Positions 12,130-55,496 of a stretch of DNA of 64,000 bases are shown in pieces. Every line of letters begins with the position of its first letter. The stretch's first letter is position 1. The DNA is from Promethearchaeia archaeon. Lineage in GTDB: Archaea > Asgardarchaeota > Lokiarchaeia > Sigyniarchaeales > SOKP01. The notes under the pieces were generated by a model. The model worked only from the letters and a program-made list of their open reading frames with translations, ran no database searches and was not told the origin of the DNA. Made by a program: the position numbers and the translations under genes. The stretch lies in the NCBI GenBank assembly GCA_029856125.1, contig JAHQWJ010000080.1, positions 90,576 to 154,575 of the forward strand. Reading direction: 5' to 3'.

Positions 12130-13623
<1,494 letters not shown>

Positions 13624-27312: not shown

Positions 27313-27837
27313 CTAAGTTTGGTTTGCGTAAAAAATGAGCCATTTTGCTATAGCTTGAAACGATTCGTTGACGTTTATATTTTCTTTAGATGAGGTGAAA
27401 ACGCATTGATTGCATTTAGCTTTTTGAGCGTAATCGTTTGCTATTTCGAAGTCAACTTCGTGATTAGGCAGGTCCCACTTCATCCCCATTAGTATAATTG
27501 GCACAAAACCTGCTTTTTGGCGAATTATTTTCAACCATATTGGGATGTCTCTAAATGTGTCGTAATCCGTGATATCAAAACAAATTAGACCACCGCTTGC
27601 GCCTTTACAATAGTCTGGTAAAAGCTCTCGGAATCTTTTTTCTCCGGCAAAATCCCATAATTGCATTTTTACGGATTCGCCTGTGTCTAGTATTTCTGCC
27701 TTAGTATGAAACCCAGCGCCTATCGTCATTTTATAACCGTCTTCAAATTTACCCGTGCAATATCGAGTCACCATTGCGGTTTTTCCTACTCCGCCGGCTC
27801 CAGCAACGATCACCTTAAAAATCCATGAACTCATCAT
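27313..27837 (-). CDS. Rab-like small GTPase
   Basis: 'FKVIVAGAGGVGKT', 'YKMTIG', 'QLWDFAGEKRF', 'FDIT', 'TSSK...NV'; no C-terminal prenylation motif. Confidence 0.92.
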   Translation of the reverse strand: MMSSWIFKVIVAGAGGVGKTAMVTRYCTGKFEDGYKMTIGAGFHTKAEILDTGESVKMQLWDFAGEKRFRELLPDYCKGASGGLICFDITDYDTFRDIPIWLKIIRQKAGFVPIILMGMKWDLPNHEVDFEIANDYAQKAKCNQCVFTSSKENINVNESFQAIAKWLIFYANQT

Positions 27838-28044
27838 TTTTTATAGCATAAATCGTTTATTTTGAATCCTAAAAAGAATTTGTTTGTTTAACAATTTTAA
27901 TCGCAATTACATTTTGTATAAAACTTCACATTTTTAAAATTATTTAAAACTAAAATAAAAAAAGGTTTTTATAAGATTTAGGTCTATTATTTTTTAGTAT
28001 TGTTTTTTTATATGTTTTAATAATAAAGGTTGTGAAAAAAGAGT

Positions 28045-28386
28045 ATTAAAGACGACGATATTTGTGCGATATGTAGTTTTCCGAAAGACCTATGTATATG
28101 CGATAGTTTAAGCGCAGATGAACAACAAATTATTATTTCTAACGATCGACGTAAATGGGGGAAGATAGTTTCAGTAATCACATTCGAAGGGAACATAGAT
28201 GCGAATTTAAAAGATATTCTTACGAAAGCTAAGAAAAAATGTGCTTCTGGGGGGGTTCTGAGAGGTAAAGGAATCGAACTTCAAGGTGAGCACAAATTCA
28301 AACTGAAAAAATTTCTAATAGATTTAGGATTCCCCGAGGAAAATATTATCATTCAAGATCGTATGATAAGGAAACGGCGATATTAA
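28045..28386 (+). CDS. sui1: Translation initiation factor aIF1/SUI1 (no canonical start; ATT proposed; not in ORF track)
   Basis: Frame reads IKDDDICAICSFPKDLCICD...RRKWGKIVSVI...KKKCASGG...IELQGEH...LIDLGF, the SUI1 signature with the archaeal Zn knuckle. Confidence 0.9.
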   Translation: MKDDDICAICSFPKDLCICDSLSADEQQIIISNDRRKWGKIVSVITFEGNIDANLKDILTKAKKKCASGGVLRGKGIELQGEHKFKLKKFLIDLGFPEENIIIQDRMIRKRRY

Positions 28387-28454
28387 CGATACTTTAAAAG
28401 TTAGACGTTCATTTGCTTTTTTTTTAATTTTCGTAATTTCAAAAAAAAATAAAA

Positions 28455-28907
28455 TTGGATTCAATGAGTTCGATCTTTTACCAGGTTATTTTTGAAGGTG
28501 TTAAAGAGGATTCGAGCGATTCGTACTCGCTAACCTTTAAAGACATATTTAGTGACAATCAAATTCAAATTTCTTCTCAATTTTTTACCACTTTGAGAGT
28601 TTCGAGTCAGAAAGAGTCTAATGTAGTCCATTTTCAAAATATAAAAGAGGTAATAAAAATTGGGAATCCTTCCAGTAAAATCGAGATCAATTATTATATC
28701 GCTATTCTCTATACAAATTTGAATGATGGAAAGAAAGAAGGCTTTTTAGTAGGAAATGTAAAAAATATGGGAGATATGTTGATAGGTGAGTGGCCATATA
28801 ATGAAGAAAATGTGTCCAATTCAGAAGATCTCTATTTACAAAAATTGGATTTGCTTACAAATAGTAGTAAATTTGATAACATTTGTGTAATTTATCCTTT
28901 GAAATAA
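28455..28907 (+). CDS. Hypothetical protein
   Basis: 150 aa ORF co-oriented after sui1. Confidence 0.6.
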   Translation: MDSMSSIFYQVIFEGVKEDSSDSYSLTFKDIFSDNQIQISSQFFTTLRVSSQKESNVVHFQNIKEVIKIGNPSSKIEINYYIAILYTNLNDGKKEGFLVGNVKNMGDMLIGEWPYNEENVSNSEDLYLQKLDLLTNSSKFDNICVIYPLK

Positions 28908-55417: not shown

Positions 55418-55496
55418 TGGTAGCGGGGGTTCGATTTGAACGAACGATCTCAGGGTTATGAGCCCTGCGGCATAAACCAGGCTAGCCCACCCCGCT
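55418..55496 (-). tRNA. Initiator tRNA-Met(CAT); CCA encoded
   Basis: A1:U72, three G-C pairs in the anticodon stem (GGG/CCC), CT-CAT-AA loop. Confidence 0.93.

Follow-up and report, generated by a model that had tools for sequence, protein, structure and literature searches.

The window, by which we mean the whole 64,000-nt stretch of DNA that was analysed, spans 90576-154575 of contig C84 in a MAG (G000) of a Lokiarchaeial Asgard archaeon. It holds on its forward strand a gene for the archaeal translation initiation factor aIF1, a SUI1 protein (Table 1). From stop to stop, its frame runs over 116 codons (28036-28386) and matches the Pfam SUI1 profile PF01253 over profile positions 2-77 of 77 (E 9.7e-12; 45.6 bits, cut-off 25.5). 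This is the single SUI1 match in the whole genome (3.69 Mb, 99% complete), and the sole SUI1 homologue of an archaeal genome is the initiation factor rather than an accessory paralogue. The four cysteines of the zinc knuckle (C7, C10, C17 and C19, numbered from the ATT at 28045) are invariant in alignment A1, and the protein is under purifying selection, with at least 85% identity to the consensus over 68 rows and changes mostly at third positions. Upstream lies a divergent gene for a Ras/Roc-family small GTPase (27313-27837, reverse strand; Pfam E 1.7e-38) and downstream a 147-aa ORF that has no Pfam match (28464-28907, forward strand); the order GTPase, aIF1, 147-aa ORF is retained in G019 (L011). 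On the same contig, a 16S rRNA gene (12131-13622, forward strand) precedes aIF1 by about 14 kb.

The aIF1 frame is closed upstream by a TGA, after which it reads AAA AAG AGT ATT AAA GAC GAC GAT ATT TGT. The first in-frame ATG, GTG or TTG (NTG) is an ATG at codon index 109 (28363-28365), seven codons before the stop. We found the sequence to be as the original prediction had described it: no NTG stands between the TGA at 28033-28035 and the CxxC, and both a Shine-Dalgarno (SD)-like GGTTGTGA (28028-28035) and an out-of-frame GTG mini-ORF (28032-28049) are present. When we screened the 3079 non-overlapped stop-to-stop ORFs of at least 100 codons in the source genome, the first NTG fell past mid-length in only 17, several of them spurious.

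Table 1. Features of the aIF1 start region and of other genes of the source genome that lack an NTG start (plain coordinates refer to the window).
Feature	Position	Strand	Description
ATTTAGGTCTATTATTTTTTAGTA, genus-conserved block	27976..27999	+	candidate BRE/TATA promoter for a leadered transcript; conserved in congeners
TTTTAATAATA, A/U-rich leader or TATA box of a leaderless transcript	28015..28025 (-30..-20 from ATT)	+	80-97% conserved per position
SD-like AAGGTTGTGA	28026..28035	+	9 nt before ATT (-19..-10); invariant upstream of aIF1
Out-of-frame GTG mini-ORF (MKKEY*)	28032..28049	+	read from sequence
In-frame TGA shutting the aIF1 frame upstream	28033..28035	+	inside the SD-like element; read from sequence
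9-nt purine-rich spacer AAAAAGAGT, read as non-coding	28036..28044	+	variable at every codon position
ATT, inferred start (an AUU that the initiator tRNA would read)	28045..28047	+	comparison of loci
aIF1 (SUI1) CDS as read here	28045..28386	+	113 codons, opening with ATT and followed by TAA
N-terminal zinc knuckle CxxC-x6-CxC of archaeal aIF1	28063..28101	+	translation
T9 run, archaeal terminator-like U-tract	28417..28425	+	31 nt past the aIF1 stop; read from sequence
uS4	G000:C82:28855-29364 (L167:256-765)	+	no NTG start; AAGGTGA TTTGAA ATC GGA GAT CCA, TGA two codons upstream
eS19	G000:C144:2425-2892 (L134:226-693)	+	first NTG at codon 117 of 155; start ATT AGC ATA TAT
Three Ras-family GTPases and a MobA-like NTP transferase	C82:19779-20339 (L133), C63:10164-10760, C124:9567-10481, C18:32108-32779 (L132)		domain or P-loop before any NTG

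The start codon of aIF1

We compared the start region over 105 distinct aIF1 loci. In 72 of them no in-frame NTG occurs from the upstream stop to the first cysteine of the zinc knuckle, and all 72 have AT[T/C/A] at the start position (67 ATT, 3 ATC and 2 ATA), six codons from that cysteine (once seven, once ten), with one to three in-frame stops directly upstream. Large sister clades read GGTTG TGA TAA GAG AGT ATT, and in three loci the nearest in-frame stop is only one codon upstream of the start (TGA TAA TAG AGY ATT in L082 and L099; TAG CGT ATT in L102). The congeneric genomes that hold the gene (17, later 34) all carry AAAGGTTGTGA, a 9-nt spacer and then ATT AAA GAC. The ATT at 28045 aligns with the starts of sister family f2, which are TTG, GTG or ATG followed by CCA AAA GAT, behind TGGAGTGA; genera g5 and g10 have ATA CCA AAA GAC at the homologous position. 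In a quick maximum likelihood tree, the 78 rows of family f1 (copy 1, paralogue 2 and intermediates) form one clade, which has AUU, AUC or AUA (AUH) throughout, while the outgroups outside Loki have NTG starts, mostly ATG. Ten more loci from f1 genera g12-g15 are also AUH, which brings the f1 total to approximately 88 loci, all AUH. Moreover, NCBI proteins of relatives start at the ATT (MKDDDIC...; for example, P0001, P0006, P0012 and P0015-17).

Judged by this comparison of loci, the start codon of aIF1 cannot be an NTG, AUH occupies the homologous position throughout family f1, and the ATT at 28045 is the only codon that fits all clades. We infer that translation very probably begins at AUU 28045, decoded as Met by the ordinary initiator tRNA. 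The original prediction of a start other than ATG, GTG or TTG is thus supported, with AUU 28045 by far the best of its candidates. The AAG at 28039, which it had also put forward, was rejected because it is not conserved, the position reading AAG, AGG, AAA, GAG or GAC in relatives or falling inside a stop codon.

The initiator tRNA-Met of the genome (window ~55418-55496, reverse strand; G000:C84 c[145993,146071]) has A1:U72, a GGG/CCC anticodon stem and the anticodon CAU, and on inspection displayed nothing odd that would account for AUH starts. Among the 17 tRNAs recovered by ARAGORN, which are an incomplete set, there was no special initiator besides the ordinary one. We also considered whether ATG is selected against at the start. 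Among the 68 copy-1 rows, the start codon ends in T in 65 and in C in 3, which is suggestive, but by itself the absence of ATG is not significant, since G is scarce at four-fold sites of these rows (~12%) and 5 of 19 such sites likewise have no G.

The nucleotides between the SD-like element and the ATT behave as non-coding sequence. The copy-1 spacer has no indels, and congeners differ in it by species (AAAAAGAGT, AACAAGAGT, AAAAGGAGT, ATAAAAAGT and AGAAAGAAC). It is 9 nt long in copy 1 and L103 and 8 nt long in L113 and paralogue 2; the shorter form brings the GTG of the SD, here a perfect GAGGTGA, into frame, and it is because this GTG moves in and out of frame without consequence that we read the spacer as non-coding.

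These comparisons bear on three other readings of the 5' end. If translation started at the out-of-frame GTG at 28032, ribosomes could reach the aIF1 frame through a programmed +1 frameshift, or they could terminate at the overlapping UAA (xAU UAA) and re-initiate at the AUU. An NTG-A does stand directly before the frame in g1 (GTGA), L018 (ATGA) and L020 (TTGA), and in most copy-1 loci the ATT shares bases with the stop of the mini-ORF. However, an NTG before a TGA is expected by chance in three of four cases, a GTG within a paired SD cannot occupy the P site, and L113, L019 and paralogue 2 have the GTG in frame. Moreover, the mini-ORF of the ATC clade (L069, L071 and L076) runs on without that stop, the mini-ORF of L103 ends earlier, and there is no shared shift site, a +1 shift after the GTG running into TAA or TAA TAG in the GTGATAA clades. 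We consider a GTG start very improbable, and the mini-ORF is probably a by-product of the fixed spacing plus ATT AAA. For the NTG-A arrangement we had also considered prfB (RF2), another translation factor gene that depends on the decoding step of its own factor, but a +1 frameshift of the prfB type was rejected for aIF1, which has no conserved shift site and no in-frame stop at a slippery codon.

Translation could instead begin at TTG 28030, which is in frame, and pass the UGA by read-through or by recoding it as Sec or Trp. The product would then be MWKKSIK..., which is how ENA protein P0002 is called. TTG TGA is in frame in copy 1, Sec machinery has been published for Lokiarchaeia, which may thus encode selenoproteins, and possible Sec genes are seen in the source genome. 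Nevertheless, sister clades have TGA TAA or TGA TAA TAG in tandem, so that two or three stops would have to be passed, and these tandem stops rule out read-through of the UGA as well as a simple +1 shift out of the GTG. In addition, genus g13 has CCG TGA and no TTG, and we found no conserved RNA structure downstream; we give read-through almost no weight. Nor do we credit an assembly error or a decaying pseudogene. One A fewer in the A6 run (28035-28040) would put the GTG in frame, as the original prediction had cautioned, but the A run is not conserved (relatives read GTGAAGAAAGAAC, GTGAATAAAAAGT and GTGATAAGAGAGT), whereas more than 70 distinct loci of independent MAGs preserve the frame relation. 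Furthermore, the gene is the sole aIF1 copy and its protein is under the purifying selection described above. Since every congener with the gene has conserved this arrangement, we conclude that it is due neither to chance nor to sequencing error, and the AUU at 28045 is the start that we retain.

Three other genes of the source genome were noted for stop codons at or within their frames. Two are candidate Sec genes, a peroxiredoxin-like ORF that begins with SHC, a possible UxxC, right after a TGA (G000:C112:34687-35040, forward strand), and an HdrA-like ORF that also begins after a TGA (C82:24265-24816, forward strand). The third, a UPP synthase gene (G000:C32:16246-16929, reverse strand), has an in-frame TAG inside an apparent short duplication of an N-terminal motif (...LILDGN * KYFLLLNGNRRWA), which could reflect a pseudogene, an error of assembly or recoding.

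Probable placement of the 30S subunit on the AUU

The SD-like AAGGTTGTGA is invariant in 62 unique upstream sequences, bar one exception at one base, among loci in which four-fold sites are near saturation. With the 16S rRNA 3' tail of the source genome, GGAUCACCUCCU, it forms a split duplex of -7.9 kcal/mol (-9.3 in GTGAT clades), compared to -11.7 to -15.9 kcal/mol for paralogue 2 and -11.3 for uS4. Since G is enriched at -14..-8 before unambiguous starts of the source genome, SDs are in use there; the element of aIF1 is imperfect and lies 3 nt farther upstream than the genomic optimum. The same place is taken by a canonical GAGGTGA or AGGAGG in paralogue 2 and in other families. No conserved RNA structure was found at the start with RNAalifold on 20 diverse leaders (-3.45 kcal/mol, zero covarying pairs), the single-sequence MFE z-score at the aIF1 start is -0.46, and elements like a riboswitch or SECIS are absent.

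In our model, the 30S subunit would be placed through base pairing between the 16S 3' tail and the SD-like AAGGUUGUGA, invariant but imperfect, 9 nt upstream of the AUU. Such SD-led placement is likely, and we favor it because strong canonical SDs occupy the same place in independent lineages whose aIF1 starts are near-cognate. Alternatively, the mRNA could be leaderless, beginning at or next to the A of the AUU, such that TTTTAATAATA would be the TATA box and AAGGTTGTGA a DNA element (promoter-proximal or the site of a regulator) rather than an SD. In keeping with this, the TATA-like run lies at the canonical distance, the base at -1 is a pyrimidine in 59 of 62 upstream sequences and that at +1 is A, and genes of the source genome that have no SD display a weak T/A pattern at -30..-25. 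The invariance of the 8-mer also exceeds what a weak SD would seem to need. In contrast, SD-bearing genes of this genome have no T/A signal at -30, and canonical strong SDs, with which the element is positionally homologous, precede AUH or CUG in paralogue 2 and at least four other families. Leaderless translation also depends strongly on a cognate start codon in Haloferax reporter work. We found no transcription start site data for Lokiarchaeia in the literature, and we regard a leaderless aIF1 mRNA as unlikely, though not negligibly so. For a leadered transcript, the candidate promoter ATTTAGGTCTATTATTTTTTAGTA lies at a variable distance from the SD-like element in congeners (38-51 nt).

AUH starts in other genes and near-cognate aIF1 starts in other families

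Since AUH codons might serve other genes, we examined those of the source genome in which a conserved domain begins before any NTG, a basis we preferred for the count because SD enrichment was too noisy (an SD precedes 4.0% of ATT and 4.7% of ATA codons upstream of the first in-frame NTG genome-wide, compared to 3.3% for all codons). At least seven genuine genes need an AUH start: uS4, eS19, three Ras-family GTPases, a MobA-like transferase and aIF1. The GTPases and the MobA-like gene each have an SD-like motif and then ATT or ATA, and there are probably several more AUH-start genes in the screen of 3079 ORFs (with a Pfam domain or P-loop before any NTG). Three further candidates were noted at C50:16098-16886, C18:115463-116110 and C138:77908-78564.

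The two ribosomal protein genes vary within the genus. Across it, uS4 has AAGGTGA, 6 nt and then ATC, ATG or ATA, followed by an invariant N-terminal GDPRR. The codon is ATC in ten close genomes including the source, where a TGA (once a TAA) closes the frame one or two codons before it. In an eleventh ATC locus (L194) there is an in-frame GTG within the SD. Two congeners have ATA, and ATG is found in the other congeners and in all other families of the order. Likewise, eS19 reads ATG TCT ATA TAT in congeners, as against ATT AGC ATA TAT in the source genome. The eS19 of the complete 4.4 Mb f2 genome G032 also has no NTG (TAA TGG AAA ATT AAT ATC TAT). From these alignments we conclude that AUH codons act as starts in the source genus, as a recurrent minority feature of the genome, and that an AUH start is not exclusive to the fidelity factor aIF1.

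Some f1 genomes have a second aIF1 paralogue of 55-62% identity (L048-L051, L104-L112, L200 and L205), with a perfect SD GAGGTGA(T) and an ATT or ATA 7-8 nt downstream; the source genome has one copy. In 7 of 42 congeners we found no aIF1 match. Of the five of these that we examined, four also miss the neighboring RPA gene and in the fifth the contig ends inside RPA, so the aIF1 region lies outside those assemblies and there is no evidence of gene loss. Proximity to the rRNA operon may be the reason that the aIF1 region is missing from several congeneric MAGs.

We then surveyed 121 Asgard genomes at least 80% complete, from which 51 aIF1 start regions were retrieved. The aIF1 start is ATG or GTG in most families. 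Near-cognate starts recur in five more families. The aIF1 gene of f6 has no NTG and reads GGAAGGTG, 7 nt and CTG; f9 has CTG where its sisters have GTG; f11 has TAA AGGAGG, 9 nt and ATA; f16 has ATA, with an ATG two codons upstream in a sister; and f17 has AAAGGAGG, 9 nt and ATA. In the same sample, uS4 starts with ATG in 43 of 50 cases, and its sole non-NTG starts are two ACG codons in family f20. Outside f1 and f2, obligate non-NTG starts were found for aIF1 in 7 of 37 genomes, compared to 2 of 50 for uS4 (Fisher P = 0.03), or in 5 of 19 families, compared to 1 of 22 (Fisher P = 0.08). This enrichment on aIF1 is suggestive, resting as it does on a single control gene and on related genomes. 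Similarly, AUH is kept in every f1 aIF1 locus (78 rows and ten more) while uS4 and eS19 flip within the genus, a difference with modest statistical support. The apparent ACG starts of f20 (L305 and L306, genomes G103 and G116) read GAGGTGA TTGAA ACG GGT GAT CCC.

Relation of the AUU start to the role of aIF1

In bacteria, infC, which encodes IF3, starts with AUU, and its translational autorepression has been demonstrated; only two or three genes of E. coli are known to use an AUU start. The aIF1 of family f1 resembles infC in that the gene of a factor that rejects non-canonical starts itself has an AUU behind an SD or SD-like element, conserved over a wide clade. The two differ in that IF3 and aIF1 are unrelated proteins, in that AUH starts in the Loki lineage also serve ribosomal proteins and GTPases, and in that feedback is demonstrated for infC but only proposed here for aIF1.

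Work on other archaea connects aIF1 to the choice of start codon. The aIF1 proteins of S. solfataricus and P. abyssi bind the 30S subunit near the P site and destabilize complexes on non-cognate starts (PMC4705826, PMC6237735). As these experiments are summarized in review, S. solfataricus aIF1 prevents formation of the 30S initiation complex in vitro on AUU mRNA but not on AUG mRNA (reviewed in PMC4705826; also PMC6237735). The AUU read here as the start of aIF1 falls in the very class of codons that, according to this literature, aIF1 discriminates against. If the Loki protein acts as that of S. solfataricus does, its own translation should be inversely sensitive to its level because of the AUU start. 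Specifically, aIF1 as a factor that destabilizes initiation complexes on near-cognate codons would reduce its own synthesis when abundant and allow it to rise when scarce, and the outcome would be negative feedback on start-codon stringency, as in infC (AUU) and eIF1 (poor AUG context).

Autoregulation of aIF1 through its AUU is biochemically plausible given the block on AUU mRNA in vitro, and we put it at about even chances. It is favored by the deep conservation of AUH in f1 together with the recurrence of near-cognate aIF1 starts in other Asgard families, and it is weakened by the AUH starts of uS4, eS19, small GTPases and other genes. The main competing account is that aIF1 has an AUU start and no dedicated feedback, being one of a minority of genes that tolerate or exploit a weak AUH for constitutively low translation. 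This account explains the AUH starts of the other genes in the same genome, it accommodates the uS4 of another Asgard family with its ACG, and it accords with a lack of ATG that is statistically non-significant. Yet AUH in uS4 and eS19 is limited to subclades of one genus and reverts to ATG, whereas aIF1 has AUH in every one of the approximately 88 f1 loci, including a paralogue at 55-62% identity, and has near-cognate starts in five more families. Moreover, any AUU-started gene is expected to respond to the level of aIF1, such that some feedback would be automatic if aIF1 is Sulfolobus-like. We think that a weak start with no dedicated feedback is a real possibility, somewhat short of an even one.

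The autoregulatory reading could be extended further. Near-cognate aIF1 starts (AUU, AUC or AUA in f1, f11, f16 and f17; CUG in f6 and f9) might be a recurrent selected trait of Asgard archaea that forms a stringency feedback, with the other AUH genes (uS4, eS19 and small GTPases) as a small regulon tracking the aIF1 level, and the whole as a prokaryotic forerunner of the eIF1/eIF5 circuit. We offer this as speculation and consider it unlikely.

In eukaryotes, the gene for eIF1 (SUI1) has its AUG in a poor context, which leads to autoregulation (Ivanov et al. 2010, as cited in PMC4705826 and PMC6237735). The likeness to aIF1 lies in an orthologous protein with an orthologous role in start stringency, whose own start is suboptimal and conserved. 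However, eIF1 has a weak Kozak context round an AUG that is reached by scanning, whereas the aIF1 of family f1 has a near-cognate codon placed by an SD or by the 5' end. eIF5 and 5MP/BZW autoregulate through inhibitory uORFs with poor context (PMC3326321, PMC5823381), and in these too the expression of a modulator of fidelity is tied to the stringency that it controls; unlike them, aIF1 has no supported functional uORF, since the GTG mini-ORF is inconsistently conserved. Both bacteria, with the AUU of infC, and eukaryotes, with the poor context of eIF1, thus link the synthesis of a fidelity factor to the stringency that it enforces. If feedback on aIF1 is real, the family-wide AUU-started aIF1 and the recurrent near-cognate starts in Asgard archaea would be the third domain's own version. 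In the literature, we found no description of an AUU-started archaeal aIF1 or of its regulation, and no archaeal counterpart of the stringency autoregulation of infC and eIF1. What the present analysis adds is the use of uS4 and eS19 as controls, the finding that CUG and AUA recur on aIF1 in other Asgard families, the invariance of the GGTTGTGA element and the leaderless alternative.

The AUH starts also affect annotation. NCBI starts the CDSs of relatives at the ATT and names them "stress response translation initiation inhibitor YciH". We rejected YciH identity, since the scores are below the curated cut-offs (97.1 bits compared to 98 for NF002096; 63.2 compared to 111.65 for TIGR01158) and the host is an archaeon; the name was transferred on a near miss. 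Other callers, being restricted to ATG, GTG and TTG, cut the gene short to products of 74-90 aa that have no zinc knuckle or read through the TGA as W. With AUH starts on uS4, eS19 and GTPases as well, N-termini in these genomes are systematically miscalled.
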